Below are positions 122 to 34,261 of a stretch of DNA of 35,421 nt, piece by piece; positions within the stretch are counted from its first letter, which is position 1; the number at the start of each line of letters is the position of its first letter. The notes beneath the pieces are model-generated. The model was not told where the DNA came from and searched no databases. It saw nothing but the letters and a program-made list of their open reading frames with translations. Source of the stretch: a virus (lineage: Duplodnaviria; Heunggongvirae; Uroviricota; Caudoviricetes); IMG/VR virus record IMGVR_UViG_2751185971_000005, positions 1 through 35,421 of that record; one strand, given 5' to 3'. A program made the position numbers and the translations under genes.

Positions 122-460
122 TTACATATGAGTGATCACTTTCAGAACATCACCACGGCAGGAGAAACGGTAGCGAAGGTGTGTTCCGATACCATCAGGA
201 TTCTTTTCGTCGATACGTTCCAGAGTGATTCCAAGCTGGCGTTCTAACTCTGTTGCATAGTTACGACCAGAAGACAGACGGCAGTAGCGAAGAATGTCAT
301 TTTCTGTCCATCCCTCTATACCAGTACGCAGCATATAGACTCTGGCACGATGCTTTTTCGGTGTGCGCTTTGGTGCTTGAAGGGATTTTGTAAGGGGCGT
401 AACATCAGATACGCGAATATCTGAATTAGCCGCCTGTAATGGGCGGTTTTTCTTATTCAT
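122..460 (-). CDS. Hypothetical small basic protein (112 aa) downstream of alpA
   Basis: ORF track; its ATG (458-460) overlaps the alpA stop (460-462) as TAATG, indicating translational coupling. No family recognised. Confidence 0.5.
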   Translation of the reverse strand: MNKKNRPLQAANSDIRVSDVTPLTKSLQAPKRTPKKHRARVYMLRTGIEGWTENDILRYCRLSSGRNYATELERQLGITLERIDEKNPDGIGTHLRYRFSCRGDVLKVITHM

Positions 461-657
461 TACGCTACCTCGCCACGCGACTCAGCGATGCGCTGATTAA
501 TCCATTCTTCAATTTCACTTTCAATAAACGCAATTGATCGGCTTCCAATCTTTACAGATTGAGGGAATCGCTGTTCTTTGATGAGCCGATAAATCCACAC
601 TTTGCTGTAACCAGTACGGCGTTGAACCTCAGAAAGACGAATAAATGATTGAGACAT
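460..657 (-). CDS. alpA: AlpA-family helix-turn-helix regulator / excisionase-like protein
   Basis: 65-aa protein MSQSFIRLSEVQRRTGYSKVWIYRLIKEQRFPQ... typical of AlpA/Vis-like prophage regulators; AGGAGT Shine-Dalgarno upstream of the ATG at 657. Confidence 0.85.
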   Translation of the reverse strand: MSQSFIRLSEVQRRTGYSKVWIYRLIKEQRFPQSVKIGSRSIAFIESEIEEWINQRIAESRGEVA

Positions 658-775
658 GTTTACTCCTATATTCTGTCATCTTCTTTAATGGACATCAGTA
701 GACAGAAAGGAGATTAAACAAACCGGTGAATGGGTGATAGCGGATAAAAATAAAATATTTTTTTGAGAAGATTAT

Positions 776-810
776 CCGCTTTGAAATACACAGTAGCGTA
801 TTCAAAGCGG
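776..810. promoter_or_regulatory. Perfect 10-bp inverted repeat (CCGCTTTGAA-N15-TTCAAAGCGG), candidate operator
   Basis: Read directly from sequence; lies in the AT-rich gap between the 293-aa ORF and alpA; no T-run follows on either strand, so not a typical terminator. Confidence 0.3.
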
Positions 811-854
811 AAATCGCGAAATTTACTTAAAACGTTTACGTAGGATTTTGCTTG

Positions 855-1736
855 CTATAAATCTCTACTCATTAAATCAGATATTTTTATCAAGCTCATT
901 TCTCTGTCTTTGTTTACATAAAGCTGAAGCAAGCGGGTGTATCTCTCGCTTATAGATTCAAGTGCAAAAGGCTTTATTGATTCCTTAATAGCCTGCGTAT
1001 CTTTCGGATCATCACTAAAAACCAAGGCAGAAATCATCGGATTGCTCACTTCCTTACCTGACTTCTCACCCCAAATCAGCAGATCAACAATAGGTATCAC
1101 TCTATTAGATATCAACTTCTGAAGGGTCTTTAATCCAATCCTTTTCTGAGCGACATGCTCTCTCTCTGGTACTTTTAACTCTTTTCGCCATAGAGGTAGA
1201 AGGTGAGTCAGGCTGGTAATAATTTCGTCATCAGTGGCGTCATCTAAATCTATAGAAACGAGTATGATGTTAGGGGAACAATTACTTAGGTTTCCAGTAA
1301 CACTCGCAAGCATAGCGTTTGCCTTGAGGTAGCAATCCTCTTCGTCTCTTTTAAAAAAGCCTTGATCTATCGATGAGAAAGAGTACATGGCCAGCTCTGA
1401 AAATGTTACTGGACTAACCCCCATAGCTGAAGATAATGAGGGTAGATCATCGTACTCATTTCTTAATGATGGGGCTTCATCATTTACTTTGCGAATAAAT
1501 TCTTCGACCTCTTCCTCTTCTTCATTGAGAATGGTTAGGTTAGGATCGCCCGAAAAAATCCTTTCATATTTTATATCGTACTCTTCTTTGAATATAGCAG
1601 TGTCATCTTTTGCATGACGCAATAAAAAATCGCGCCACTCTAATTCTTGAATCAAGTCCGGCAAGGTTAAATCATTTAAAAATTCATAATTACTAATATC
1701 AAACCATGCTAAATCTTGTTTTTTGGCTCTCACCAT
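855..1736 (-). CDS. Hypothetical acidic protein (293 aa), cargo gene between integrase and alpA
   Basis: Long ORF in an AT-rich region with an EEEEEVEE acidic tract; occupies the variable slot between int and alpA; no recognisable motif. Confidence 0.6.
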   Translation of the reverse strand: MVRAKKQDLAWFDISNYEFLNDLTLPDLIQELEWRDFLLRHAKDDTAIFKEEYDIKYERIFSGDPNLTILNEEEEEVEEFIRKVNDEAPSLRNEYDDLPSLSSAMGVSPVTFSELAMYSFSSIDQGFFKRDEEDCYLKANAMLASVTGNLSNCSPNIILVSIDLDDATDDEIITSLTHLLPLWRKELKVPEREHVAQKRIGLKTLQKLISNRVIPIVDLLIWGEKSGKEVSNPMISALVFSDDPKDTQAIKESIKPFALESISERYTRLLQLYVNKDREMSLIKISDLMSRDL

Positions 1737-1878
1737 ACGCCACCCCGCGCCCCTAATTCTGACGGCTATGCCAGCCCGTAGGGGTGTACGGGTTTTCGGG
1801 GATCAGCCTAGACATAGCCTATTCTTTGTTCGTCTACATAAGTCTACTACCATTGCTTAACACGGTCTATTCATACAG

Positions 1879-3093
1879 TTAAGCTCGTTTCCCAAACGAA
1901 CCATGAACAACGTTCTCCTCCTTCTCCAGCGCATCCATATAGTCGGCATACCATTGAAGCATCTCCCGCCTTCCATCCAGATATTGCGCATGGTTGTATG
2001 TGCCACGAATTGAGTTCTTATCAACGTGAGCGAGCTGCGTTTCTATCCACGCGGTGTTATAGCCCTGCTCATGCAAAATCGTGCTCATAGTGTGCCGGAA
2101 CCCATGACCAGTTACACGTCCAGCGTAGCCAATGCGCTTAAACACTTGGTTTATGCTGGCCTCACTCATTGTTTTCCTTGGATCATTGCGCCCGGGAAAC
2201 ATAAGAGGGTAATTGCCTGTTATTTCTCTAATCTTCCCAATAAGCGAAAGAGCCTGATCAGACAATGGCACAATATGAGGCCGCCGCATTTTCATACGTG
2301 AAGCGGGTATCTCCCAGATAGCCTTGTTGAAATCAATTTCATCCCATAATGCGCCACGTAGTTCGCCAGTCCGCAAGCCGATGATAATCAGTAGACGAGC
2401 CGCCATAACAACCAATGCGCTTCCTGAGTAACTGGACAATGCCTTGAAAAAATCAGGTAATTCTTTAGCTGTAAGGAAAGGGTAATGATTAGATTCATGG
2501 CCTTGCATCGCGCTAGTAAGGTCTGGTGCAGGGTTATACTCTGCGCGACCAGTGACTATTGCATAGCGGAAAACTTCCCCGCACCGCTGCCTCACTTTTT
2601 TGGCTTTTTCTGTAGCACCGCGCCCCTCGATGCGCCGCAGCACATTCAGAAGTTCAAGTGGTTTGATTTCGGCGATTGGTTTTTTGCCAATGTAAGGGAA
2701 CACATCTTTGTTGAAGGCTTCGAGGATGTCTGAAGCATAACCAGCAGACCATTTTTTTAATTTGCTGCTGTGCCACTCAAGGGCAATATCTTTGAAGGTG
2801 TTGTTTAACTGCGTTTCCCGGGCAATCTTTTCCTCTCGTTTCGCTTCCATCGGATCGATACCACCAGCGATACCTCTTTTCGCATCTTCACGTTTTGCCC
2901 GAGCATCGGCTAGAGTAACCTCAGGATACACACCTAGTGCCAATAGCTTCTCTTTACCAGCTACACGATATTTAAGTCGCCAGTATTTACCTCCATTAGG
3001 TTTTACCAAGAGATACAAACCGCCACCATCGGCCAGCTTGTAAGCCTTCTCTTTTGGCTTGGCTGTGTCTATTTGACGGGCATTGAGTTTCAC
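1879..3093 (-). CDS. int: Tyrosine site-specific integrase, P4 type
   Basis: 404 aa; N-terminus MKLNARQIDTAKPKEKAYKLADGGGLYLLVKPNGGKYWRLKYR and C-terminal GHGFRHT...LAH...Y catalytic region are characteristic of P4-type integrases; it lies just downstream of a tRNA 3' fragment. Confidence 0.92.
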   Translation of the reverse strand: MKLNARQIDTAKPKEKAYKLADGGGLYLLVKPNGGKYWRLKYRVAGKEKLLALGVYPEVTLADARAKREDAKRGIAGGIDPMEAKREEKIARETQLNNTFKDIALEWHSSKLKKWSAGYASDILEAFNKDVFPYIGKKPIAEIKPLELLNVLRRIEGRGATEKAKKVRQRCGEVFRYAIVTGRAEYNPAPDLTSAMQGHESNHYPFLTAKELPDFFKALSSYSGSALVVMAARLLIIIGLRTGELRGALWDEIDFNKAIWEIPASRMKMRRPHIVPLSDQALSLIGKIREITGNYPLMFPGRNDPRKTMSEASINQVFKRIGYAGRVTGHGFRHTMSTILHEQGYNTAWIETQLAHVDKNSIRGTYNHAQYLDGRREMLQWYADYMDALEKEENVVHGSFGKRA

Positions 3094-3165
3094 TTGGGGG
3101 TACCTCCACTAAACCGAACAGCAAATACCCCCATAAGTACCCCCATCTGACCGTAGATTTTGAGG

Positions 3166-3239
3166 GACTTTAGTAGGCGTCAAAAGACGAACGGGGCTTT
3201 AATACGCGGATTATAAGGGGTTTTGAAAGACTTTAGTAG
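3166..3239. repeat. Two 11-bp direct repeats GACTTTAGTAG (3166-3176 and 3229-3239) between int and the att core
   Basis: Seen in sequence; position is appropriate for integrase arm-type binding sites. Confidence 0.3.
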
Positions 3240-3258
3240 ACTTGGGGAGATGTTTGAA

Positions 3259-3304
3259 TGGTGCCGATAATAGGAGTCGAACCTACGACCTTCGCATTAC
3301 GAAT
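3259..3304 (-). repeat. att repeat: 46-bp 3' fragment of tRNA-Thr(CGU) (anticodon loop to CCA), not a complete tRNA
   Basis: Minus-strand reading gives ATTCGTAATGCGAAGGTCGTAGGTTCGACTCCTATTATCGGCACCA (anticodon loop, T-arm, acceptor 3' strand, CCA). The sequence beyond 3304 has no D-arm or 5' acceptor strand, so the tRNA is truncated, as expected for the displaced att repeat of a tRNA-integrating element. Confidence 0.8.
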
Positions 3305-3653
3305 TATAAGAATCCACTTCTAATTCAAAGCATTACCCCATCAACACTGCGCTCACACGTCCCACCACATCAAAACATGTAAAGCCTTGCAAGCCATTGC
3401 GAGGCCTTATGTGTCTCAGTTTTGTCCCACCTTGTATTACGACTTGCATAGCCAATGAAGATAAACGTGACGACAAACGGCGCAGCAGTCTTCTTTTCCT
3501 TCATACTTTCCCCACCCAGCATGCATACCTTTATGCCATAACTGAAGTTTATGTCTGTTATGAGCGAATTGCAGACATTAACGTTTGGTTAAGGGACGGG
3601 CTGTAGCCCGTCCCAGTGAGCGAAGCTTAATTTAGTCCGTGTGCAGCGCTTTG

Positions 3654-5084
3654 TTAGCCAAAACTGATGTGATTTTTAGTTAGATCTCTATATCTCTTAT
3701 CGTTGTGTACTTTATGGAGGATCGTTTGGTTGGCGATCAAAAAATCTATAATTTCTTGAATTCTTTCGCTACGAGCATTGGCTCTTAACAAAGTCAAAAC
3801 GCTTACCATATGTTGCTGGCAGTATTTGTTGTCTAAATTCACTCGCACTTCATTAGAGTGCATTGCTATAACTGTATTGATAATGTTTTGATCGCCAAGC
3901 ATGCCAAAAAACTGATCATACAAAGGTCGTCCCGCCGGAGAAACACCAGTATTATATGGTATTCCTTTACCAACACGACAAATCAAAACTGTTTTTATAA
4001 GCTTATGAACCCTCTCTAAAGGTATGTCATTTTCAGTCTTTAAATACGAAAGAATCTTCCGCATATGAGGGGGTTCATTATAAAAGTTATCCCAAGCATA
4101 CCTAGCCTCTAAGAGATCGTCGGCATGGCCGTCCAGTGATATAATTCTAGAGTCTAATGATTGATAACGATTACCATCACAAAACGTAAAAAACTCAATA
4201 CCTAAAGCATGTTTCTCGTTGTGAAGATTGTTCTTGTATCCGTCTAGCGTCACGCCGAGCTTGTATTTTACGTTATCACTGCTTTTATTCCAGATATGCG
4301 GAGCAAAAAGAGCGATATTTTTTCTGACAACATTTCCTGTTGAATCAGCTGTATATATGCCGAAAATACTATTGAGTAGATTGTCAGTATTCTGAAGCGA
4401 CAGATCATTCAAAGGTCTTTCCATGCTATGAATTGTGGCTTCATCAAGAACATCAGTGGATCTTTTTAGATTCTCAAGGAATGATTTTATTTGTATGGCA
4501 GACGCGGACGGTTTGTCGTTCAAAATATCTTGAACGCATGTTTGGAGCCAGCCAAGAAGTTCAAAAGCATTTATGGAGTATGAATTTGGGTGCGAAGCAC
4601 CAATGTCATTCCTCATAGTCAATATATGATTGAGCTTGGTGTAAACAACGTCAGATATTAATTCAAGTTTTCGGCAAGTATTAATAAGGGTGTTGTCTTT
4701 TAAACCAGAAAGATCTTCTTCGGTAGAATAAAGCTCTCTACGTCCTCCTCCAACTGCAGCATCAAAGAACATATCGAGGCCATAAACTACTACTTTTTCC
4801 CTTAAATTCAGTACAACTTCATTCCAAACATAATTTAACGATGCATCAAATAGTCCTATAGCCGCACCAGCAACGAACTTTGATAAATATCGAGCATCTC
4901 TTTTTACCTCAGCAGGTAAAGAATCTATGAATGTGGGGAGGTTTTTTTCAATAATTTGGCGCTCAGGGAGAGAGGCAATTATATTTTCGGTCGGCAAACC
5001 AAGATAGGATAAATATCCTTCAAATTTTGTTGTATCTGTGGAAAGTACCCCTGTTCCAGGTTTTGCAATCAATTCTGAACTCAT
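3654..5084 (-). CDS. Hypothetical protein (476 aa), AT-rich orphan gene; weak HEPN-like Rx4-6H motifs
   Basis: Long ORF with AGGAA Shine-Dalgarno 8 nt upstream of the ATG at 5084; markedly AT-rich compared with neighbours; contains RNDIGASH (residues 158-165) and RDLTKNH near the C-terminus. Confidence 0.7.
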   Translation of the reverse strand: MSSELIAKPGTGVLSTDTTKFEGYLSYLGLPTENIIASLPERQIIEKNLPTFIDSLPAEVKRDARYLSKFVAGAAIGLFDASLNYVWNEVVLNLREKVVVYGLDMFFDAAVGGGRRELYSTEEDLSGLKDNTLINTCRKLELISDVVYTKLNHILTMRNDIGASHPNSYSINAFELLGWLQTCVQDILNDKPSASAIQIKSFLENLKRSTDVLDEATIHSMERPLNDLSLQNTDNLLNSIFGIYTADSTGNVVRKNIALFAPHIWNKSSDNVKYKLGVTLDGYKNNLHNEKHALGIEFFTFCDGNRYQSLDSRIISLDGHADDLLEARYAWDNFYNEPPHMRKILSYLKTENDIPLERVHKLIKTVLICRVGKGIPYNTGVSPAGRPLYDQFFGMLGDQNIINTVIAMHSNEVRVNLDNKYCQQHMVSVLTLLRANARSERIQEIIDFLIANQTILHKVHNDKRYRDLTKNHISFG

Positions 5085-5347
5085 ACGATTATTTCCTTAT
5101 CTGGTTGAAGGCTAGAGAACAGCTAACGCTTTTAGCAGGGGCGCGACGTTAGGAGCGTCCCATACCTAAACTTGTTAAGGTATTTGTGAGCAAACGCCAC
5201 CAGTATTTGGGTTTAGATCCAATACATACTTCATGCGAGTACAACCTATCCCGAATCAAGCAGGAGTCATTTCTCCCGCACTTAGGGTTTGGACATTTCA
5301 TGTTCCCTACCCATGGTGAATTCGATTCGTAATGTACGATCTTCATA

Positions 5348-5380
5348 AAGCCTTAACAATTTAATAGAAGGCTTTTTTGC
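5348..5380 (+). terminator. Orphan rho-independent terminator-like hairpin (AAGCCTT-N13-AAGGCTT followed by TTTTTT)
   Basis: Seen in sequence; oriented for plus-strand transcription, but no convincing plus-strand gene lies upstream. Confidence 0.35.
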
Positions 5381-5700
5381 CCGCAAGTGGAACATTTTTC
5401 TGCCTTCTTTCCTGATCTTTACTCACATCAAACTAACGCTGATATACCTCTATTTCAACAGGTTTTTCTGAAATCAATAAATTTGCGTCCGGCAAACTTT
5501 ATACAGCCAGTACGCGAGTTGTTCTTGATTTACTTAAGCTGGACACATGGGAATTATCCAGCGGCTTGTGCTAGTAAAAGAAGAAATTATCAGGCATTTA
5601 CCACAACGCCCAATGCCCGCTTTTGGCACAAAGCAGACGCCCACTCTCACGCGAATGCTTTGCCCTTGACTTGCCAACAACCGTATCGCTTGCTCCGCAA

Positions 5701-6978
5701 CTATGGTTTTTTATTAGAATCTTCGCCACTAAATAAATTATAATAAATTGATTTTATTAGATATCTGTCAGAATCTATATGGTCAGCACGAGTAGCATGC
5801 TCTAATGTTTCAAATGCTAGGGTTTGTGCGGCTTCAGCAAAAATTCCAGGCCAACCCTTACTCAGCATCGACAGTCCTTTAAGGACCCTTATCTGAATTT
5901 CCCTCATACTGGCACCATCGCGCGCAACAGGTGAGAAAAAGTCTTCAAGTAGATCGTTATTCTGAAGTGGTGCAACATGTACAGAAGGATATTTCACTTC
6001 TATTTCATCAGATTTATTCTGCGCGTAAGCGGAAAGTATACGTACACCTCTGCCAATGACATCAATGGCGGTTCCAGGATCGTTCACTGCGGGGGAAAGG
6101 GCTCGGCAGGCTATTTCGGCCATGACGCTAAGACAAAATCGGGGGTCCTGAGCAAATGAACGTACATCCGAGACAATAATCGTCTCAAGTAAATCGGTGC
6201 TGATTGATGACTCCTGGCCCTGACTCAGGTACAAAACTGGCGTGGACGGATGTATGAAACTGCCCGGCTGCGCCACGAGGTATACATGACGGGGATCATT
6301 GGTCAGCAGCTTACTGAGTTTCACCATATCAACATATTCAACATAGCCAATCTTTTTCGGATAAACTGCAACCGTTCCTTTCGGCTGTTCATTGTTCTCA
6401 AGCCATGGATATCCGCCGAGACAGGGATTTCTTGCTCTCGCAATAAATGTTTCGATGGCCGCCTGTTCTACTTTTGCCGTTGTCTCACCAACCCTCCCCA
6501 GAGAGGTCAAATGCTGTATCCAGCGAAGCAATGTGATGAGGATTAAGGCAATGACAACCAGTGTTACAATGAATAAAATGACTCTCCCCCTTTCTCCATA
6601 AGCTCCCATATTGAGGGCAATAATCCCTACCAGACTGAAGAGAAAAGAACCGATGAAGGTGGCCAGTACATTTTGTGTGGTGACGTCTTCAACAACTAAA
6701 CGAGTAGCTCTGGGAGTCACATTAGTAGTGGCTGAACCGTAGGCTGTGACCATGATGCTCAGCGAAAATGTGGTCACTGCCAGCATACTCGATGCCAGTA
6801 TGTTCAGAATGTTATCGACTGCTTCCGCACCAACCTTCACGGAAACCGACTCAGGTATCATTGATTTAAAAAGAATTGATAAAAGGGCCGTTATTATTGC
6901 GACAATTGCGAATAACGTTGCCCTGAACCATAGTTTTTTAAATGTCTGCTTCAGCATCCATTTCCAGCGTGAAATCAT
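5701..6978 (-). CDS. DUF2254-like predicted membrane protein
   Basis: N-terminal multi-pass hydrophobic region followed by a soluble domain; start placed at the ATG at 6978, which has a GAGGGA Shine-Dalgarno (the track's longest ORF starts at 6993). Confidence 0.7.
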   Translation of the reverse strand: MISRWKWMLKQTFKKLWFRATLFAIVAIITALLSILFKSMIPESVSVKVGAEAVDNILNILASSMLAVTTFSLSIMVTAYGSATTNVTPRATRLVVEDVTTQNVLATFIGSFLFSLVGIIALNMGAYGERGRVILFIVTLVVIALILITLLRWIQHLTSLGRVGETTAKVEQAAIETFIARARNPCLGGYPWLENNEQPKGTVAVYPKKIGYVEYVDMVKLSKLLTNDPRHVYLVAQPGSFIHPSTPVLYLSQGQESSISTDLLETIIVSDVRSFAQDPRFCLSVMAEIACRALSPAVNDPGTAIDVIGRGVRILSAYAQNKSDEIEVKYPSVHVAPLQNNDLLEDFFSPVARDGASMREIQIRVLKGLSMLSKGWPGIFAEAAQTLAFETLEHATRADHIDSDRYLIKSIYYNLFSGEDSNKKP

Positions 6979-7041
6979 TCTGCATTCCCTCATATTGCAG
7001 CCGGGATAAATAAATGCCGCCTCTGTGGCGGCATGTTGCTG

Positions 7042-9045
7042 TTAACGAACCAGATGCAGGAAGTGCAGGTGTTTTTCGTACTGGTCCAGTATGTCATTAA
7101 TCAGCTGTTCCTGATTCCAGCCCATTACATCATAATTTTGGCCGCCCTCTTTGAGATAGACTTCAGCGCGATAATATCGATGTTGTTCACTCTGCTGCTC
7201 ATCATTATCCAGCGCAGCGAGCGCGAAGGTCGGTGAGTTATACCCGCGAAGCCTCACTTCATATATATAATTCAGCTCGTTGCCCAAATCGACTTCAAGG
7301 CGAATACGATCCTCGGCGGCGTCACTGATGTGGCTTATCGTTCCCTGCTTGTTAAGTTCCTCCTGAACCAGCGTCATGGCGGGTTGGATAATGTCGTCCA
7401 TAAAACGTTTCACAAGAGAGCGCTTCGGCAAATACGCGATATTGCGTAACCTTCTCTGCCAGGGAATTGGGTTACGTGCAGCCGTAGGAGCAATAGTCGC
7501 CATGCTAAGGCTTTCACGCTTGGTCAAATCCCGACGCAGGGCTTTTAACAGTCCGTATATGGATATTAATAAGATAACTGAGAAGGGCAATGCACTCGCT
7601 ATCGTTACGGTTTGCAACGCACTCAGCCCCCCTGCGATCAGCAGGGCAATAGCAACAACGCCCATGAGCAATGCCCAGAAAATTCGCTGCCAGACGGGCG
7701 TGTTTGCCACCCCACCTGATGCCAGAGTATCCACAACCATTGCCCCCGAATCAGCAGACGTTACAAAGAAGACGATGACCATCGCCATTGCAATGAATGA
7801 CAGCACGGAAGAGAACGGGAAATGCTCCAGGAAATTAAACAGGGCAAGCGCAACATCCTGCTGAACGGTATTGGCGAGGTCAGTGGCGCCCTGGTTCATG
7901 ATGAGATAGATGGCGCTGTTTCCAAACACCGTCATCCACATGAGCGTAAAGCCGGCGGGAACAAACAACACGCCAGTCACGAACTCACGAATTGTCCTGC
8001 CGCGGGAAACGCGTGCAATGAACATACCTACAAACGGCGACCATGAAAGCCACCATCCCCAGTATAATAATGTCCAGCCCCCCAGCCAGTTGCTCGACTT
8101 GGGTTCATACGCGTAAAGGTTGAACGTTTTACTCACCAGTTCCGACAGATAACCACCCGTATTTTCCACAAATGACTTCAGCAGAAGCACAGTGGGACCC
8201 AGGCACAAGACCAGCGCCAGGAGCAACACCGCCAGGCCCAGATTAAGCTCAGACAGGATGCGTATTCCCTTGTCCAGGCCGGACACCACCGAAATCGTCG
8301 CTAACCCCGTGATGACCACGATCAAAATGACCTGTACCGTTTCATTGATGGGCACGCCGAAAAGATGGTTCAAACCGGCATTCACCTGCAATACACCGTA
8401 ACCCAGCGATGTTGCAACGCCAAAGACAGTGCCTATCACGGCGAAGATATCAACCGCGTGGCCTATAGGCCCGTAAATGCGATCGCCGATAATGGGATAG
8501 AGCGCAGAACGCAGCGTTAAAGGCAGACCGTGACGGTAACTGAAAAAGGCCAGAATCAGCGCCACGATGGCATAAATTGCCCATGCGTGCAGACCCCAGT
8601 GGAAGAACGTCAGGCGCATGGCTTCCTTCGCTGCCGCAACGGTCTCTGGAGTGCCGACAGGTGGCGAAAGATAATGCATCACAGGTTCGGCAACGCCAAA
8701 GAACATCAGGCCGATCCCCATCCCTGCCGAAAAAAGCATCGCGAACCAGGAGTGGTAGCTGAAATCAGGCTGCGCATGGTCTGGGCCCAGCTTTATATCA
8801 CCGTAACGTGAGAGTCCAAGGAACGTGACGCTCAGTAAAATCAGGGCCACAGCAAGTATGTAGAACCAGCTGGCATTCGTGAAGATTTGTTGCTGAAGTA
8901 GTTTAAAATTTTTGTCGGCGACATCCGGGAATACGGCGGCAAAGGCGACAAGAAGGAAAATTAGCAAAGCAGATGTAAAGAATACCGCTTTGTTAACCTG
9001 GCTTGTAGACTTCTTTGGGGTTGTATCATTTTCACTCATAATCAT
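7042..9045 (-). CDS. BCCT-family transporter (BetT-like choline/betaine/carnitine transporter) with long C-terminal cytoplasmic tail
   Basis: 667 aa with conserved BCCT signature segments (WTLLYWGWWLSWSPFVGMFIARVSRGRTIREF) and a BetT-like C-terminal extension. Confidence 0.9.
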   Translation of the reverse strand: MIMSENDTTPKKSTSQVNKAVFFTSALLIFLLVAFAAVFPDVADKNFKLLQQQIFTNASWFYILAVALILLSVTFLGLSRYGDIKLGPDHAQPDFSYHSWFAMLFSAGMGIGLMFFGVAEPVMHYLSPPVGTPETVAAAKEAMRLTFFHWGLHAWAIYAIVALILAFFSYRHGLPLTLRSALYPIIGDRIYGPIGHAVDIFAVIGTVFGVATSLGYGVLQVNAGLNHLFGVPINETVQVILIVVITGLATISVVSGLDKGIRILSELNLGLAVLLLALVLCLGPTVLLLKSFVENTGGYLSELVSKTFNLYAYEPKSSNWLGGWTLLYWGWWLSWSPFVGMFIARVSRGRTIREFVTGVLFVPAGFTLMWMTVFGNSAIYLIMNQGATDLANTVQQDVALALFNFLEHFPFSSVLSFIAMAMVIVFFVTSADSGAMVVDTLASGGVANTPVWQRIFWALLMGVVAIALLIAGGLSALQTVTIASALPFSVILLISIYGLLKALRRDLTKRESLSMATIAPTAARNPIPWQRRLRNIAYLPKRSLVKRFMDDIIQPAMTLVQEELNKQGTISHISDAAEDRIRLEVDLGNELNYIYEVRLRGYNSPTFALAALDNDEQQSEQHRYYRAEVYLKEGGQNYDVMGWNQEQLINDILDQYEKHLHFLHLVR

Positions 9046-9445
9046 TTATTCCATTAATTAAATCCGCACTGGATAGAAGGTACTACCTCTCACAGAGTAG
9101 CAAAGTTCAACTGGCTATGCGGGATTAATCGGAATGCATGGTGGAATGAGTGCCGATACAAATCATCCTATATTCTAAGGAGTTTTAAGTTACTCAGCCT
9201 GCCAATTACTGGGGCATTTAATTTGTATGATCTGTATCAAAGCTGGGATATAAGTTAAGTGAAGTATATTAGGCACGAATTACCAGCGTCTGCTCTTGGC
9301 ACATAGCAGACCAGAGACACTGGCGTAAAGCCATGGAGGATCGGTGGGAGGAGGTAAAAATCCTCTCATGCAAAAAATACGCAAAATCGATAACAGTTGG
9401 AAATCATTCAATACTCGCACTATCGGAAGTTCACCAGCCAGTCGT

Positions 9446-9570: not shown

Positions 9571-10440
<870 letters not shown>

Positions 10441-10466: not shown

Positions 10467-10502
10467 AGCACGATCTTCTTGCATACGACGTGCTACGGTT
10501 TC
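10467..10502. repeat. Hairpin-forming repeat copy B (AGCACG-ATC-TTCTTGCATACGACGTG-CTACGG-TTTC); possible bidirectional terminator
   Basis: Direct repeat of 9446-9480; lies in the 60-bp gap between the convergent GIY-YIG and invertase genes and overlaps the invertase stop codon. Confidence 0.6.
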
Positions 10503-11055
10503 ATTTATCTCCGACCGGAAACTTCTTATACAGTGTCGATATACCAACATCATAGATGATCGCCACCTTCTGGCGAGGAACGCCTGATGCAATTAATCGC
10601 CCGGCCTGCGCCCATTGTTCTGGTGTAAGTTTGGGACGACGTCCACCAATTCGTCCCTGTGCGCGAGCAACTTCCAGTCCAGCTTTTGTTCGTTCAACAA
10701 TCAGTTCTCGTTCCATTTCAGCCAGGGCACCCATGACATGAAAAAAGAAACGGCCCATTGGGGTACTGGTATCAATACTGTCAGTCAGGCTTCGGAAATT
10801 CACGCCACGCTGGCGCAACTCTTCTATCAGCGTAACAAGATGCCGCATACTGCGCCCTAACCTGTCCAGCTTCCAGACAACCAGAGTGTCACCTGCCGAT
10901 AATGTCCTGAGCAGTTTTTTCAGTCCGGGCCTTTCGGACTTCGTACCGCTTATCTTGTCTTCAAAAATCAGTTCACATCCTACACAGTTCAACGCATTAC
11001 GTTGTAGATCGGTGTTCTGGTCATTTGTTGATACGCGTACATAGCCAATAAGCAT
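10501..11055 (-). CDS. Serine recombinase, DNA invertase (Gin/Hin/Pin/Cin family)
   Basis: N-terminus MLIGYVRVSTNDQNTDLQRNAL with the catalytic Ser, then resolvase core and C-terminal HTH; start at the ATG at 11055 with AGGGAG Shine-Dalgarno; adjacent to an invertible tail-fibre segment. Confidence 0.92.
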   Translation of the reverse strand: MLIGYVRVSTNDQNTDLQRNALNCVGCELIFEDKISGTKSERPGLKKLLRTLSAGDTLVVWKLDRLGRSMRHLVTLIEELRQRGVNFRSLTDSIDTSTPMGRFFFHVMGALAEMERELIVERTKAGLEVARAQGRIGGRRPKLTPEQWAQAGRLIASGVPRQKVAIIYDVGISTLYKKFPVGDK

Positions 11056-11081
11056 GGTGGATCTCCCTGACAAAAGCAGGA

Positions 11082-11576
11082 ATGATGCCATTTGCTCGTT
11101 ATTTCTGCATTTTCATAAACGTTGGTTTGGGAGAAGCGGCAAAACGGAATGTGGGCAACGGGGAAAACCAAATCCCTGATATGTCTTTCTGGACGGTTAC
11201 TGGTGGCAATGGAAATTTTGTGATTCGTCAACCTGACGGGCTAATCATTCAGATGGTTACTGTAAGTATAAGCGGTCCAGTGGCGATGAATGGAATGACT
11301 GATAATGCTTATGCCATTACAGGTTCTAATAAGTCTTATATTGCCACAGCCACATTGCCCTTTGTATTTCCTAATAAGGTGCTGGGCGTTATCCCTCTGG
11401 TATCAACAACAGCTTATGGTGGTGTATCCAGTAATATTACAGGTTCATACGCGACGGCGGTTTGTTCTTTTGCCGCTGTCAGGGGGAATAATACGATTGT
11501 GTTCAAAGTCGACAAACCACTGAATGCAGCCTTTCCTTCAGATACCAGCGTCTCAGCGTTAATCATTGGACGGTAA
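11082..11576 (+). CDS. Alternative tail-fibre C-terminal variable segment (Sv'-like), expressed only after inversion
   Basis: The reading frame runs through crossover site 1 and encodes NVGLGE there, matching NLGLGE at site 2 inside the expressed fibre gene; the ATG at 11082 is probably not a real start. Confidence 0.6.
   Translation: MMPFARYFCIFINVGLGEAAKRNVGNGENQIPDMSFWTVTGGNGNFVIRQPDGLIIQMVTVSISGPVAMNGMTDNAYAITGSNKSYIATATLPFVFPNKVLGVIPLVSTTAYGGVSSNITGSYATAVCSFAAVRGNNTIVFKVDKPLNAAFPSDTSVSALIIGR
11110..11135. promoter_or_regulatory. Invertase crossover site 1 (hix/gix-like 26-bp site TTTTCATAAACGTTGGTTTGGGAGAA)
   Basis: 26-bp imperfect palindrome 55 bp upstream of the invertase start; inverted repeat of the site at 13055-13080; close to the hixL consensus TTATCAAAAACCTTGGTTTTCAAGAA. 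Confidence 0.8.
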
Positions 11577-11578
11577 GA

Positions 11579-12022
11579 ATGAACTCAGTATTCTTTTCAC
11601 CCGGAAGTAAAAGTTTTTATCTGCAAGAATTGTTTCCAGAATATGAGGATGCGGGAACGCTTCCTGATGATGTTATTGAAATTACCAGAGAAACATATGA
11701 GCAATTTCTTGGGCTGCATCCAGAAGGGAAAGAAATTGGCGCTGACAGTTCAGGACGGCCAATATGGATTAATTCCCCGCCGCCTTCAAAAGAGGATGAG
11801 ATGCTGGCGGCTGAAATGAAAAAGATATCTTTGGTTTCAGAAGTCAATACCTACATCAATACCAATCAGTGGCCTGGCAAAGCTGCTATTGGTCGTCTGA
11901 AAGGTTACGAGCTGGAACAATATAATTTATGGCTGGATTATCTGGACGCACTGGAACTGGTTGATACCTCCAGTGCTCCAGATATTGAATGGCCTACGCC
12001 TCCGGTAGTTCAGGCCAGATGA
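11579..12022 (+). CDS. Tail fibre assembly protein (U'-like chaperone for the alternative fibre)
   Basis: 147 aa with the conserved Tfa C-terminal signature ([26 protein letters not shown]). Confidence 0.85.
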   Translation: MNSVFFSPGSKSFYLQELFPEYEDAGTLPDDVIEITRETYEQFLGLHPEGKEIGADSSGRPIWINSPPPSKEDEMLAAEMKKISLVSEVNTYINTNQWPGKAAIGRLKGYELEQYNLWLDYLDALELVDTSSAPDIEWPTPPVVQAR

Positions 12023-12599
12023 CATCCGGCGCGGTGCTGGTATCTGTTGCAGTCACCGCGTCAATGTAATCCAGCACAGCGTTAAGCCGGGTTGTTTCTG
12101 CCTGCGTCAGCTTCCGCCCGGCCTGCAATTTCAGCTGAATCAGACTAATGGAAGCCATAGCAGCATCAATCAGTGACTGGCGCCGTACTTCTGCCGCGTC
12201 TACTGCGGCGTTATGCTGTGCCTCAGTATCGGTCACCCATTTCTCACCATCCCATTTATCGTATGACGTTAACGGGGCGATAGTGGTTGTATTTTCAGGG
12301 TAATCACCCGGAACTGTGATTTCTTTTGATTCTCCTGTTTCGGTGCTATAGACGATTTCACCGCGATGGTCTGGCACATATTCCCATGAGTTAAAATCTG
12401 CAGAACGGCAAATTGCATAACCAGCTTTATATGAGCCAGGAGCATCTAAACAGGAACATGCCGGGATACCGACACCCACAGCAAGATATTCAGTTGATGT
12501 GGAAATATATTCCCGTGTTTCACCATCATAATTATAAACGGTAATGTCTCCGGCCTTTGTGGCGATGAGTTCATTATTTAATACAGCTTTACTTATCAT
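11994..12599 (-). CDS. Tail fibre assembly protein (U-like chaperone for the currently expressed fibre)
   Basis: 201 aa; C-terminal [28 protein letters not shown] Tfa signature; immediately downstream of the fibre gene. Confidence 0.85.
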
Positions 12600-13357
12600 G
12601 CAGCCCTCACAATATAATTAAAGGCGATGTTACGGGAGCGGGTTTCAGATGCTGTGCGAACTGAGCGAGATGCGTCGAATGTCCAGTTATAAGCGCCATA
12701 ACCCTCAATAATTTCGGCTTCCTTTAGACCTGTAGATAATACTTGCCCATGTTGACTAAATGGCCCTGAACTAAGTACGTCTCTAAAAAGCTGGGTACGC
12801 CCAAAAGAACCAACAATATTCTGAATTGCATCATTCTGTGCAGATAATAAGTTACGACCAGAGTCAATCCCGCGCCCATCATCCCAGCCACGAATAAATT
12901 CACCGCGTAAATCTGGTAATTTTAATGTTGGGTAAGCCTTTGCCAGATTTGGGTACTTTTCAGAAGAAAATACTGCTCCGTTACATTTTAGCCACCCCGT
13001 TGGCGGAGTGGCTGAAGGCCACGGAACAGGCACACCAACCGGTAATGCAGAGCCTTCTCCCAAACCAAGGTTTTCGAGAGCTGTTTTCACGGTGCCATCC
13101 GATTTGATATCGCCAAACGGATTCTTGCGGCTTAACAGCAGCGCACGAAGCGCGGTAAGCAGCTGGTCGTGCCTCCCCTTCTCCAGGCTGGCACCGGATG
13201 CCTCCACCACGCCACAAAGCTCTTCCTGCAACATGTCAAAGTAGTCATCATCCAGATCGGTGGCAGGCGTGCCGGTCTGGGGGTTACCACGGGTAAAACC
13301 GTTCTTACCCGCGCCGAACTTATCCTTCTGCGCGGTTTTCGTGTCTATACGATGCAT
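12596..13357 (-). CDS. Tail fibre protein (short constant N-terminal part plus variable C-terminal part in current orientation)
   Basis: 253 aa; crossover site 2 lies inside the gene at the ENLGLGE junction; followed by the Tfa gene; Mu S / e14 Stf-like. Confidence 0.85.
13055..13080. promoter_or_regulatory. Invertase crossover site 2 (hix-like TTCTCCCAAACCAAGGTTTTCGAGAG)
   Basis: Central 13 bp AAACCAAGGTTTT identical to the hixL centre; inverted relative to site 1. Confidence 0.8.
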
Positions 13358-30332: not shown

Positions 30333-30683
30333 TCACTTAAGCCGTTCACGGGCCGTCTTCGCCTTGTGGCATGGCCAGCACAGGCTCTGCAGATTACCGT
30401 CTGCATCCGTACCGCCATGCGCTTTCGGAATGATGTGGTCCACAGTTCTGGCTTCAACGGCTCTCCCATTGCGCAGGCAGTTCTGACACAAATGATTATC
30501 ACGCTTCAGTATGCGCGCACGTATGGCATCCCATTTCGAGCCATAGCCACGCTGGTGGCGGCTCAGTCCGCGTTGATGTTGTGTCCAACCTTCGCCGCGA
30601 TGCTTATCGCAGTAGCCAGAACTGTCCGTCGTTGTGCCTGCACAGCCTCGCTTACGGCATGCACGAGGGATTTGTGATGGCAT
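30333..30683 (-). CDS. HNH endonuclease (terminase-associated)
   Basis: CxxC...HIIPKAHGGTD...N...CWPCH HNH/zinc motif; start at the ATG at 30683 with GAGGAG Shine-Dalgarno; directly upstream of the terminase genes. Confidence 0.88.
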   Translation of the reverse strand: MPSQIPRACRKRGCAGTTTDSSGYCDKHRGEGWTQHQRGLSRHQRGYGSKWDAIRARILKRDNHLCQNCLRNGRAVEARTVDHIIPKAHGGTDADGNLQSLCWPCHKAKTARERLK

Positions 30684-30725
30684 AGAATTTCGCTCCTCTA
30701 AAAAATATTCTGCTCTCACCGTCGG

Positions 30726-30908
30726 TCAGTTCTGCATACACTGCCGGACACTATCAACAATTTCACAGACCTGAGAAGCTGTATCGAAAAGCTGGCGCGC
30801 CTTATCCAGGCTGACGCAGCCCACCAGGAAAAAAGGCACCAGTATCGCTACCAGTGCCCATTTCACCGCCGTTCGCGGCATTCTGTGTGTCCAGTGTTTT
30901 CGCGTCAT
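30726..30908 (-). CDS. Small lipoprotein (60 aa; lipobox LVGC)
   Basis: Signal peptide AVKWALVAILVPFFLVGC then a 38-aa mature part with two Cys; its ATG overlaps the stop of the upstream small ORF (TGATATGA region). Confidence 0.6.
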   Translation of the reverse strand: MTRKHWTHRMPRTAVKWALVAILVPFFLVGCVSLDKARQLFDTASQVCEIVDSVRQCMQN

Positions 30909-30909
30909 A

Positions 30910-31023
30910 TCACCACCAACGCACAGCCCAAATCAGAACAGCGACCGCCACAAGGCGAATTGCAAAGGCCGCAGCCCTTGTCAAATCAAGGCTCGCGGGA
31001 GTTTCCACTTCAATACCTTTCAT
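30910..31023 (-). CDS. Small membrane peptide (37 aa), translationally coupled to the lipoprotein gene
   Basis: ATG at 31023; encodes MKGIEVETPASLDLTRAAAFAIRLVAVAVLIWAVRWW with one hydrophobic segment; below the ORF-track size cutoff. Confidence 0.45.
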   Translation of the reverse strand: MKGIEVETPASLDLTRAAAFAIRLVAVAVLIWAVRWW

Positions 31024-31119
31024 AATGGACAACCTCAAAAAGAATCTTTTATACTTTCCCACGAGGATTTTCTCCGTACTCACTACTCACAATTTCCTCT
31101 TTGACGTGAAAACTAAAAA

Positions 31120-31156
31120 CCCCGGACTGTTCCAGCAGCCGGGGTTTTGTTTTTTT
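31120..31156. terminator. Rho-independent terminator (CCCCGG-N13-CCGGGG flanked by A-run and T-run), bidirectional
   Basis: GC stem with flanking AAAAA and TTTTGTTTTTTT; lies just downstream of the 93-aa gene on the minus strand. Confidence 0.7.
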
Positions 31157-31436
31157 ATTTACTGCCCTGGGTGCGGCATCTGGCTATTTCATTCCTGGCT
31201 TTAGTGTCACCGCGACAGATACAACGAACCGTGTCACCCGCCAGCGTAGTGATGTAGGCCTCATCCGTTTTTTCCACCGAAATGCATGGTACATTTCCAT
31301 CCAGGCAATACTCCACCAGGGCAGCAAGGTGAGTGTTGCGCGGGTAAAATTCCAGGCGATACATATTCCCCAGAACATGCACTTCTTCAACCTGGCGCCC
31401 ATCTTCCGTTACCGTGATTTTTTTCAGCGCGTACAT
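31155..31436 (-). CDS. Hypothetical Cys-containing protein (93 aa) downstream of the endolysin
   Basis: ATG at 31436 with GGAGG Shine-Dalgarno 5 nt upstream; five Cys including a CxC pair; no transmembrane segment, so not a canonical spanin. Confidence 0.55.
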   Translation of the reverse strand: MYALKKITVTEDGRQVEEVHVLGNMYRLEFYPRNTHLAALVEYCLDGNVPCISVEKTDEAYITTLAGDTVRCICRGDTKARNEIARCRTQGSK

Positions 31437-31506
31437 ACGTACCTCCGTTCTTTCGTTTTTTGAGCAATAAAAAAGCCGCTCATGGCGGCCCTGTATGTTT
31501 TGCAAG

Positions 31507-31890
31507 CTATCGCTTCAATTGAAAATGTGGGCCGTCTTTAAGCGTCCGCCAGTCCCCGCCCCATTCGATGGCTGTTCCCAGCTCTGCGGCAGCCTGCTTA
31601 AATGCCTGCGCGATTTTCTCGTACAGAGGCCAGTCCCATGACACCTGGCTGCCAACCCAGGCAACAACATCCACCGCATCACCGGTCAGGTGGCGGCTGT
31701 TCATGGTCTGGCTTTTCCCTTCCGCGACCAGCTGTTTCTGGCGTTCTTTCGTGCGCAGCCCTTCCGTAATACCGAAATCAACCTCCGTCAGCTCCAGCGC
31801 ACGGCGAACGACAGCAACCAGCTGTGGTTTAACGCCCTCCAGATTCTTTTCGCTGCGACGACTGAATCTGAATTTACCCGACATATTCAC
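31507..31890 (-). CDS. Endolysin, peptidase M15 family (zinc metallopeptidase type)
   Basis: 127 aa with SRHLTGDAVD ... DGPHFQL zinc-ligand pattern typical of M15 endolysins; sits within the holin cluster. Confidence 0.85.
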   Translation of the reverse strand: MNMSGKFRFSRRSEKNLEGVKPQLVAVVRRALELTEVDFGITEGLRTKERQKQLVAEGKSQTMNSRHLTGDAVDVVAWVGSQVSWDWPLYEKIAQAFKQAAAELGTAIEWGGDWRTLKDGPHFQLKR

Positions 31891-32162
31891 CTCAATAATG
31901 GAAAGATTTTTGTGACGTTCCCGCGCGCGCGTATCACCAGCACGCAGAACAGCAGATTAAAAAACACTTCCAGCCAGCCCGTTGCTAACGGGCGACCACA
32001 CAGATAGCTGAGGGGCGCAAAGGCATACAGCAGCATCAGCAACCAGGCCAGCCATGACATCAGCGGTTTATGTCTGGAATCACGACGACGATAAAAAAAG
32101 AGCGTCAGCACGATAACCGTGCATAACGCCACATTCAGCAATCCGGGAAGGTTACTTAACAT
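31887..32162 (-). CDS. Membrane protein of the lysis cassette (91 aa; holin/antiholin-like)
   Basis: ATG at 32162 preceded by GGAGGAGG; several hydrophobic segments; overlaps the holin stop by 11 nt and the endolysin start by 4 nt. Confidence 0.6.
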   Translation of the reverse strand: MLSNLPGLLNVALCTVIVLTLFFYRRRDSRHKPLMSWLAWLLMLLYAFAPLSYLCGRPLATGWLEVFFNLLFCVLVIRARGNVTKIFPLLR

Positions 32163-32544
32163 TGCCGCCTCCTCCACCCCGCAGGCGGGAGAACAGGCCG
32201 GACACCAGCGATGCAATATCCTGCTGGTGGATGAACGAGAGAATCTTCACCGACACCACCGCCACCAGCACCGCACACAGTGCATCCGCCGATGTACCGT
32301 CATAACCTGTTTTTGATGCAATCCAGGCTGACAGCACATGCGCACCCAGCACGCCAACGATAAACGACACCAGAAAATGCGCCGCCACACGCCAGGCTGA
32401 AAGCGCCTGCGGCATCGTTGCCACAAATAACGCCCCAGCGAACGCCCCAAACACAATCCCGAAATCCGTTCCGGTAAACAGCCCGAATACCGTCGCCCCG
32501 CCGAGCGCCGCAGCCGTACCGGAACCGGACAAGGGTTCAGACAT
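32152..32544 (-). CDS. Putative holin (130 aa, Gly/Ala-rich transmembrane segments)
   Basis: ATG at 32544 with AGGAG Shine-Dalgarno; MSEPLSGSGTAAALGGATVFG... followed by several transmembrane segments; located upstream of the endolysin. Confidence 0.7.
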   Translation of the reverse strand: MSEPLSGSGTAAALGGATVFGLFTGTDFGIVFGAFAGALFVATMPQALSAWRVAAHFLVSFIVGVLGAHVLSAWIASKTGYDGTSADALCAVLVAVVSVKILSFIHQQDIASLVSGLFSRLRGGGGGNVK

Positions 32545-32631
32545 ACTTTTTCTCCTGTAAATAAAAAAGGGCCACCAACGACCCGTAAAAAACACCCGTC
32601 AAAGGCACCCGCAGATACCTTTTGTGTGGTG

Positions 32632-32784
32632 TTATTCAGATTTACGCAGTAAAGGCCAGAGTACGGCCAGCGCCATCGCCACCAGCACACCATCTGCCAG
32701 CACCGACATCAGCCGTCCGGTGAAATCCACCGCCACTACCAGAAACAGCAGGATGGCAGCCAGCACAAGGCGCGCACTTTTCAC
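32632..32784 (-). CDS. Small membrane protein (50 aa), GTG start overlapping the TerB-like stop
   Basis: GTG at 32784-32782 overlaps the TGA at 32783-32781 (GTGA); encodes VKSARLVLAAILLFLVVAVDFTGRLMSVLADGVLVAMALAVLWPLLRKSE; below the track's size cutoff. Confidence 0.45.
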   Translation of the reverse strand: MKSARLVLAAILLFLVVAVDFTGRLMSVLADGVLVAMALAVLWPLLRKSE

Positions 32785-33206
32785 AGGTACTGCTCCAGCG
32801 GCAACTGCAGCGCCTGAGCAATTTTCTTGAGCTGCGCTTCTTCATCCGGACCAATGCCATCCTGGTCAGCAATATCGAGACACAGGCACAGCACATCAAC
32901 CGCTTCGGCGGTTCCTGCCACATCAGCCAGTTCACGCAAAGCCTGAGCATTCGCACTACGAGGTGACGCTTCATAACGGGCGCGGATATTTGCACTCATT
33001 TGTGCAATCTCACCGGAGAACGGCGCAAAGGCAGGAAGTGCTGCAATGGTTTTTTCCAGTACAGCGATTTCTTTCGCATCACAGGTGCCGTCGGCGAATG
33101 CTATGGAATACGCGCCCCAGACGGTCGCCTCCACTGCGTCGCGGTTCTCCATCTTCTTCACTTCAGTAATGGCCTTGCGGGTTTTCTTTTTGAAAATACC
33201 AAACAT
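32781..33206 (-). CDS. TerB-like (tellurite-resistance TerB / DjlA N-terminal domain family) protein
   Basis: 141 aa with paired AFADG...E / DQDG...EE helical motif pattern typical of TerB-fold proteins. Confidence 0.65.
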   Translation of the reverse strand: MFGIFKKKTRKAITEVKKMENRDAVEATVWGAYSIAFADGTCDAKEIAVLEKTIAALPAFAPFSGEIAQMSANIRARYEASPRSANAQALRELADVAGTAEAVDVLCLCLDIADQDGIGPDEEAQLKKIAQALQLPLEQYL

Positions 33207-33344
33207 CGTGACTTTTCCTTTTAGTGGGTGAGCCTGCGCCCGGGGGTGACCAGCCCACAGAGAAAGTCACACTGACCATCCCGTAAGCTCACCCCTGAAA
33301 GGCTCTGTGGTTTTTTTGATGTGCGCCGGACGTGGCGCGGATAT

Positions 33345-33372
33345 AAAAAAGGCCCGCCGCAGCGAGCCTGTT
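33345..33372 (-). terminator. Rho-independent terminator downstream of the AraC-family gene
   Basis: Minus-strand hairpin GGCTCGC-TGCG-GCGGGCC followed by TTTTTT. Confidence 0.6.
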
Positions 33373-33393
33373 TTCAATGAGTGCAAAATTCAA

Positions 33394-34137
33394 TTATTCT
33401 TGAGTAACACTTAAACTCATCTCATTGAATGCAGCCATCCTGTAACCTGCCGGTGTAACACCAAAATAACTCCTGAATACGCTGATAAAATAAGATGTAA
33501 AATTATAGCCACACTGAGCAGCGATTCTGTTGATGGCGCAACGAGATTGATTCAACAGCATTGCTGCCATTCTCATTCTCTCTGTAAGCAACAACTCACT
33601 GAAACAGGTGCCTTCTTCTTTCAGTCTTTTTTTTAACAAACTTTCACTGATACATAACCGCGAAGACACATCTCTCAGAGTCCAGTTTGCTGCAATGTCC
33701 GTACGAAACAATGCACTAAGCCTGTCACTAATATTGCCAATACACGCGGTCAGAAACGACGAAAACATTTTCTCTGATGAGAAAAACGCCAGACACGAAA
33801 AGGAAAGCATTTCCGCTAAATTGTCCGTATGAATCTTTTCCTCACAAAGATAATCAATCAGGATGCCCATCAATTCTGCCTTGGGAAAACTCACGCAAAG
33901 ATATCGTGGTATTTGCCGGACTAAAACTACATCCTGTTTTTCGTCTCCACACAACAGGTAACGGATAATTGTCGATTCACTGAGACTTATTCGCCGAAAA
34001 CATTCCGAAAAGGGCAATAACGATCCAGCTCCCCCCCTGACAAGAAGTGCACTACCACTTTCCAGAGAGAGCTCTTTTCCTTCAAAGAGCACAACAAACG
34101 GGGAATGAACAAAAACAACAGAACAAGCTTCATTCAT
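33394..34137 (-). CDS. AraC-family transcriptional regulator, AppY/GadX-like (prophage moron)
   Basis: C-terminal AraC-type HTH (SESLLKKRLKEEGTCFSELLLTERMRMAAMLL...CGYNFTSYFISVFRSYFGVTPAGY) resembling AppY of DLP12; AT-rich; start placed at the ATG at 34137 (track ORF starts at a TTG at 34197). Confidence 0.85.
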   Translation of the reverse strand: MNEACSVVFVHSPFVVLFEGKELSLESGSALLVRGGAGSLLPFSECFRRISLSESTIIRYLLCGDEKQDVVLVRQIPRYLCVSFPKAELMGILIDYLCEEKIHTDNLAEMLSFSCLAFFSSEKMFSSFLTACIGNISDRLSALFRTDIAANWTLRDVSSRLCISESLLKKRLKEEGTCFSELLLTERMRMAAMLLNQSRCAINRIAAQCGYNFTSYFISVFRSYFGVTPAGYRMAAFNEMSLSVTQE

Positions 34138-34261
34138 ATCAATTGCCCTGACATTACTGGTCACAAGATAAGTATATATCGATTTACAAAAATACAAGCC
34201 GAAAGACCAGTATTCGCAACCACCAGCGCGTTTAACGTCCTGTACCGTTTTTCAGGCATAA

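Follow-up and report, generated by a model that had tools for sequence, protein, structure and literature searches.

What leaves 46 nucleotides of a threonine tRNA gene standing alone beside an integrase gene, and what do they separate? The fragment in question lies at positions 3259 to 3304 of the window, by which we mean the whole stretch of viral DNA that was analysed (35,421 nucleotides), and reads TGGTGCCGATAATAGGAGTCGAACCTACGACCTTCGCATTACGAAT. Its reverse complement is identical to the last 46 nucleotides of the 76-nucleotide thrW gene as annotated in EC4, D2 and K-12, which places the tRNA remnant on the minus strand. Read along the tRNA, the fragment opens with the final base of the anticodon stem's 5′ strand, takes in the CGU anticodon loop, the variable loop, the T arm and the 3′ acceptor strand, and ends with CCA. 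The first 30 nucleotides of thrW, comprising the 5′ acceptor strand and the D arm, are missing, and the sequence beyond position 3304 (TATAAGAATCC...) is unrelated to them. An earlier sequence-only reading of this DNA had described a truncated tRNA-Thr(CGU) of which only the 3′ 46 nucleotides were present, with neither D-arm nor 5′ acceptor strand, and the exact match to thrW bears out this description.

The window was searched for further traces of the gene. A 45-mer of the fragment occurred a single time in the window with up to three mismatches allowed and gave matches in 0 of 100 shuffles, indicating that its presence is not due to chance. No second copy of the core was found in the window, either with up to three mismatches or by 12-mer scans, nor did any other thrW k-mer of 12 nucleotides or more occur elsewhere in it. 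ARAGORN, run over the whole window, called no tRNA. A permissive Rfam scan returned only a sub-threshold look-alike of a tmRNA 3′ end, which scored 9 bits (gathering score 47) and was rejected as a chance match.

In the family of phages that integrate at thrW, the phage integrase recombines the 46-bp core of attP with the 3′ end of the tRNA gene. The tRNA is thereby rebuilt at the int end of the prophage, and an orphan core is left at its cargo end. The att core of phage SfI was reported to consist of the 46 bases ATTCGTAATGCGAAGGTCGTAGGTTCGACTCCTATTATCGGCACCA, and the same core was found in SfII, SfV, SfX and P22 (PMC3636060). This published sequence is exactly that of window positions 3304 to 3259, the window reading 3259 to 3304 being its reverse complement.

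The DNA to the right of the fragment was compared with phage SfIV (NC_022749), in which the order is xis, int, TTGATTTTAA, the 46-nucleotide core, TATAAGAATCC... and gtrA. Window positions 3259 to 3429, that is, the core together with the first 125 nucleotides of the adjoining arm, are 97.7% identical to SfIV, and the right flank also matches phage phi458 with about 90% identity over about 310 nucleotides. Because this flank directly continues the core in the genome of the free phage SfIV, we identify it as attP sequence, and assign positions 3305 to 3567 (right limit approximate) to the cargo-side, or gtr-side, arm of an SfIV-type attP at the left end of a prophage. The arm stays beside the core in prophages whose cargo otherwise differs. 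With the core equal to that published for thrW phages and its right flank equal to SfIV attP, the proposal that the fragment is a displaced att core held up well.

On the int side of the SfIV attP, the arm GTAACTTATTGATTTTAA resembles the native flank downstream of thrW, GTAACTCTTTGATTTTAA, as seen when positions 3975 to 4000 of the SfIV locus (L005) were set against positions 19935 to 19959 of L009 and against the K-12 locus (L008). By this likeness, attP and attB agree for at least 10 nucleotides past the 46 bases of the published core. In place of this extension, the window has GATGTTTGAA, the flank of a P4-type element lying to the left of the fragment.

To the right of the attP arm, the position of the gtr genes is taken by a cargo block (3654 to 9045, minus strand) encoding a 476-aa orphan protein, a DUF2254 membrane protein and a 667-aa transporter of the BCCT (betaine/carnitine/choline) family. 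Searches of Pfam, NCBIfam and PADLOC with the 476-aa protein gave no match. The block, defined by Pfam and by its relatives, is 99.96 to 99.98% identical to the thrW prophages of LR-06 and 1604D011, and is also present on a 110-kb plasmid (NZ_CP020517.1), beside a site-specific integrase. From position 9288 to 35421, open reading frames with Pfam and PADLOC matches outline the body of an SfV/e14-like prophage on the minus strand, with a PD-T4-3 gene, a pin invertase and tail-fibre switch, a Mu-type baseplate, a contractile tail, an HK97-type head, a terminase, lysis genes and a Q antiterminator. The prophage continues past the window's right edge, which falls in the Q antiterminator region. 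Positions 9652 to 30617 are 99.6 to 99.9% identical to the prophages of LR-06 and 1604D011.

Some features of the prophage body were recorded in passing. The gene for a LEM-3-like GIY-YIG protein (9616 to 10440, plus strand), which matches the PADLOC model of the anti-phage defence protein PD-T4-3 with an E value of 2.6e-140, has the cargo block on one side and the pin invertase on the other; in 1604D011, an ISCro1 insertion is found just upstream of this gene. The Pin-family invertase gene (10501 to 11091) adjoins opposed tail-fibre genes, the group spanning 10501 to 12599, in which genes for a tail-fibre C-terminus and tail-fibre assembly are oppositely oriented at 11082 to 12022 (plus strand) and 11994 to 12599 (minus strand). 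Relatives align to positions 11870 to 12652 in inverted orientation with about 90% identity, and the invertase with its tail-fibre genes looks like an invertible host-range switch. The lysis and late module at 30618 to 34207, in which an AraC-family regulator gene (33394 to 34197) sits between Q and the lysis genes, had no match in the prophages of LR-06 and 1604D011, near-identical as these are elsewhere, and looks like a mosaic module exchange.

On its left, the fragment is followed by the gene for a 404-aa tyrosine integrase (1879 to 3093, minus strand). Since the integrase reading frame occupies 1879 to 3093, the spacer between fragment and int (3094 to 3258) is 165 nucleotides long; the start at 3093 agrees with the RefSeq annotation of the homologous gene. 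The minus-strand order of tRNA fragment and then int, at this distance, is the one that the earlier reading had given. The protein contains the Pfam domains Arm-DNA-bind_3, Phage_int_M and Phage_integrase, and is 42% identical to the P4 integrase over its full length (E value 3e-115), its nearest phage relatives being the IntS-type integrases of Sf6 and CUS-3 (about 49% identity). This identity, together with an arm-repeat layout that is the same as in P4, confirmed the assignment to the P4 type that had been made from the sequence.

Next to int lies a cargo gene of the same left-hand element for a DUF6387 protein (855 to 1736, minus strand; Pfam PF19924, E value 3.7e-38), which had no match in PADLOC or NCBIfam, and then a gene for a small DNA-binding protein of the AlpA/Vis family (460 to 657, minus strand; Pfam Phage_AlpA, E value 9e-19). 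The P4 protein ORF88 is annotated as 'excisionase and transcriptional regulator', and by analogy the AlpA/Vis-family protein is likely to be the excision or directionality factor of the P4-type element. Within the window, the left element thus comprises int, the DUF6387 gene, the AlpA gene and a 112-aa reading frame. The gene order int, DUF6387, AlpA also adjoins intact thrW in strain E2855.

The extreme left of the window, positions 1 to 121, holds the start of a minus-strand reading frame that runs off the window edge, and diverges from all P4-type element relatives that were fetched; these have a longer, 143-aa gene and antA at the same position, and similarity breaks off precisely where the 112-aa reading frame has its stop codon. 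Full-length relatives of the P4-type element (L001, 5996 to 10654, and L007, 6502 to 10251) carry genes annotated as P22-like DNA ejection/injection proteins and DUF2824, and also have a primase gene, an 'ash family' gene and antA. A small integrative element would not usually carry such genes; they may point to a satellite or to a decayed podovirus.

The spacer at 3094 to 3258 (minus strand) was identified as the int-side arm of the attachment site of the P4-type element by its repeats and by its position directly beside intact thrW in 854 genomes. A putative arm-type repeat, TTGGGGGTACC, lies in inverted orientation at the start of int (3094 to 3104), and a putative tandem pair, AAATACCCCCAT/AAGTACCCCCAT, lies at 3123 to 3146. 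These repeats have the motif TACCCCC, to which the integrase would be expected to bind. Their number, orientation and spacing are those annotated for the attP of phage P4, whose record places the arm repeats at 3915 to 3926, 3942 to 3965 and 4151 to 4174: an inverted repeat at the start of int, two tandem 12-mers just upstream, a core about 150 nucleotides away on the upstream side, and another pair of tandem 12-mers in the far arm. P4 and the left element have in common an inverted repeat at the start of int, two tandem repeats about 20 to 30 nucleotides upstream, a core about 150 to 165 nucleotides upstream, and a second tandem pair in the far arm, which for the left element was read in EC4. 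The likeness to the P4 module (int, attP with a 20-bp core and 12-nucleotide arm repeats, Vis/AlpA) extends to an AlpA-family gene nearby and to the 3′ end of a tRNA gene as target. P4, however, targets leuX and has the motif TGCCCCC, whereas the target here is thrW and the motif TACCCCC; the comparison with the P4 satellite covers the 3 kb of the left element that the window shows.

The int-side arm contains a second direct repeat, different from the TACCCCC repeats. This 19-nucleotide sequence, TTTTGA(GG/AA)GACTTTAGTAG, occurs at 3158 to 3176 and at 3221 to 3239, 63 nucleotides apart, and may be a candidate binding site for AlpA or a host factor.

How much of the 46 nucleotides serves the P4-type integrase was judged from the distal end of the element in EC4 and MSB1_8G, relatives whose cargo is unlike that of the window's element, the distal end of which lies outside the window. 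In both, the element terminates in TGGTG-CGATAATAGGA, which repeats 16 of the 17 nucleotides at the 3′ end of the tRNA with one base deleted, and which sits between the native chromosomal flank GGGGTAACTCTTTGATTTTAA and element-specific DNA. This repeat, with its 1-nucleotide deletion, was missed by ungapped search and found by gapped local alignment. In EC4, the distal arm has a TACCCCC tandem pair about 60 nucleotides from the core. Because the distal end of these relatives repeats 16 of 17 nucleotides of the tRNA 3′ end, the alignment suggests a core of about 17 nucleotides for the P4-type integrase, TGGTGCCGATAATAGGA, at the extreme 3′ end of the tRNA (3259 to 3275, minus strand) and nested in the 46. 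The distal TTGATTTTAA with its core remnant was also considered as a trace of an old SfV-type phage, on the ground that SfIV carries the same 10 nucleotides (TTGATTTTAA) beside its core; this was rejected, the same sequence being the native chromosomal flank in K-12 and LR-06.

The cryptic prophage CP4-6 of E. coli K-12 (thrW ... intF) resembles the present locus in using the same tRNA gene, in having the same distal flank (GGGGTAACTCTTTGATTTTAA, then yagP-paoD), and in carrying an orphan 3′ thrW repeat at its far boundary, where the native flank is followed by a 49-nucleotide thrW repeat and then by intF. It differs in that the 49-nucleotide K-12 repeat is the outer end of a single composite island, whereas the repeat in the window is an internal junction. 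A BLASTP comparison of the window integrase with K-12 IntF gave short, weak local matches only, the best with an E value of 0.002. The sequence-only reading had named both SfV-type phages and CP4-6-type elements as users of thrW; the thrW core is indeed that of the SfV type, and the CP4-6-type label does not fit the left element because its matches to IntF are short and weak.

We surveyed 5,426 complete E. coli genomes for each state of the site. The state with the element only was queried by a synthetic sequence made of the int arm, whole thrW and the proA flank, counting matches of full coverage; in 854 of the 5,426 genomes, for example MSB1_8G and E2855, the intact thrW stands directly beside the P4-type int. 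The native yagP-side flank followed by the 46-nucleotide core and the phage arm was present in 342 genomes of the same set, among them LR-06, and the window's own junction (2900 to 3560) in 202. E2855 carries the window's variant of the element (int, DUF6387, AlpA), 99.78% identical over window positions 122 to 3304, and in this strain the 46 nucleotides belong to a complete thrW that adjoins proA; its element is truncated by an IS. LR-06 has no P4-type element, and there the order is yagP′, native flank, 46-nucleotide core and then the same cargo and phage, with 99.96% identity. These two served as relatives in which one partner is empty, E2855 having no phage beside thrW and int, and the comparison that had been proposed with such relatives showed each element at the site on its own. 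The element-side similarity ends at 3304, and the prophage-side similarity to LR-06 and 1604D011 (99.96 to 99.98% identity) begins at 3249 and 3254, respectively, and the two tracts overlap in the core only, which is the signature of site-specific recombination inside the core.

In the genome collection, no complete E. coli genome matched the whole window. EC4 was the sole complete E. coli genome to span positions 2600 to 4000 (98.5% identity), and the right end of the window had no good match among the complete E. coli genomes, with coverage of at most 73% at about 92% identity. Among GTDB species representatives the exact junction was absent; in IMG/VR it was found in four contigs, whose loci are too short to add context.

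The far side of the prophage was examined in relatives. EC4 and D2 share the window's junction, and both read proA, intact thrW, phage int, phage body, 46-nucleotide fragment, P4-type int, the rest of the element and yagP′/paoD. The closest relative of the window's prophage is that of 1604D011 (99.6 to 99.98% identity over 3254 to 30617, the ISCro1 insertion aside), in which the phage end reads int, thrW, proA, and the phage integrase is 99% identical to that of SfIV (370 of 372 residues). The distance to thrW from the point that matches the right end of the window is 10.2 kb in 1604D011 and 11.6 kb in D2. Because the prophages of EC4, D2 and 1604D011 end at an SfIV-type int followed by thrW-proA, we predict an intact thrW next to proA about 10 to 12 kb beyond the right end of the window. 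The earlier reading had expected an intact tRNA further right, and had proposed a search for it and for a second core. Both are present in EC4 and D2, and 1604D011 likewise has the tRNA, with an SfIV-type int and proA; the window itself holds no second copy, and here the intact gene is placed by inference. Since no intact thrW occurs within the window, and no distal repeat of the left element either, the tandem model for this locus draws on the relatives.

From these results, positions 3259 to 3304 are very probably a hybrid attachment site, the meeting point of two independent mobile elements that occupy the 3′ end of thrW in tandem. Direct comparison established the identity of the core, that of both arms and the occurrence of each element alone at thrW, and showed that relatives have an intact thrW at the opposite end of the phage. 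Judged by its sequence matches, the fragment is at once the cargo-side att junction of an SfIV-type prophage and the int-side att junction of a P4-type element. With both arms identified, and genomes found that carry the element alone (854) or the phage alone, the earlier proposal of tandem integration at one tRNA was supported.

The arrangement would arise as follows. The right element is a temperate prophage of the SfV/SfIV type, whose integrase would use the 46-bp core equal to the last 46 nucleotides of thrW, its integration giving an intact tRNA at the phage int end and a 46-nucleotide orphan at the cargo end. The left P4-type element (int, DUF6387, AlpA and further genes) would use the core of about 17 nucleotides nested in the same 46, and when alone abuts the intact tRNA directly. 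Excision of the phage would be expected to restore thrW beside the P4-type int; excision of the element, by Int and AlpA acting on the 17-nucleotide cores, would be expected to leave the phage beside the native flank. Both integrases would presumably still be able to act on the hybrid site.

Two simpler origins of the fragment were weighed. An intact thrW could have decayed into a pseudogene by losing its 5′ 30 nucleotides through a deletion or an unrelated insertion, with no site-specific recombination, as might be supposed from the presence of the 3′ part alone and the lack of a tRNA call. Yet the fragment stops precisely where the published core of 46 bases stops, what comes next is the attP arm found beside that core in the genome of a free phage, relatives have the intact thrW at the other phage end, and the breakpoint recurs in 202 and 342 genomes. 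The attP match and the recurrent breakpoint lead us to exclude this origin for practical purposes. It is hardly more credible that a phage contig and an island contig were joined by faulty assembly or binning through their shared 46-nucleotide repeat. Although short-read assembly could be led astray by an exact repeat of this length, 202 complete E. coli chromosomes, most of them from long reads, and four IMG/VR contigs contain the identical junction, which makes a chimera very unlikely, and both flanks are consistent in EC4 and D2.

A more serious alternative concerns only the order of events within the same tandem, namely that the prophage came first and the P4-type element later entered the orphan copy. 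The orphan 46-nucleotide copy holds the whole of the 17-nucleotide core suggested for the element, phage-only lysogens with an orphan copy by the native flank are common (the 342 genomes above), and the junction predicted is the same as in the order that we favour. Both orders yield the same junction, and so the sequence does not tell which element came first. Against entry of the element into the orphan copy, in the one experimental case, tandem integration of the thrW phages SfX and SfI, the incoming phage took the intact, proA-proximal copy of the tRNA (PMC3306764). The element beside intact thrW is, moreover, the commoner state (854 genomes); the IS-truncated element of E2855 suggests long residence, and the phage, being more than 99.9% identical across otherwise different strains, suggests recent spread. 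None of these points is decisive. We consider it more probable that the element was already resident and that the phage then entered the intact thrW beside it; the reverse order is possible at rather lower probability.

The arrangement has close precedents. The serotype-converting Shigella flexneri phages SfI, SfII, SfIV, SfV and SfX use the same proA-thrW site with an identical 46-base core (PMC3636060, PMC3306764), and thrW is a documented integration hotspot (PMC7545054). As in the SfI-SfX tandem lysogen, two elements here have one internal att copy in common. The Shigella phages at thrW carry gtrABX, in contrast to the orphan protein, DUF2254 protein and BCCT transporter genes of the window's prophage; and in the SfI-SfX tandem the second partner is a phage with the same type of integrase, whereas the partner in the window is a P4-type element with another integrase and a shorter, nested core. 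Tandem occupancy of thrW is thus already known, and is an ordinary and common state of this gene in E. coli. The fragment opens no new question, since mechanism, core sequence and tandem use of thrW are all documented.

A further-reaching idea is that the nested cores, 17 nucleotides within 46, would make one site the substrate of two unrelated integrases, with the P4-type element living as a satellite of the adjoining SfV-like phage and tandem residence coupling their induction or packaging. Genes for a primase, an AlpA-family protein and P22-like ejection proteins are present in relatives of the element. We regard the satellite idea as improbable.

For annotation, the value of the fragment is that it marks the exact boundary between two mobile elements that could otherwise be called as one 'island' or one oversized prophage. 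It also predicts where the intact thrW would lie and which products the excision of each element would give. More generally, the locus illustrates how a tRNA hotspot gathers elements with different integrases and overlapping cores.
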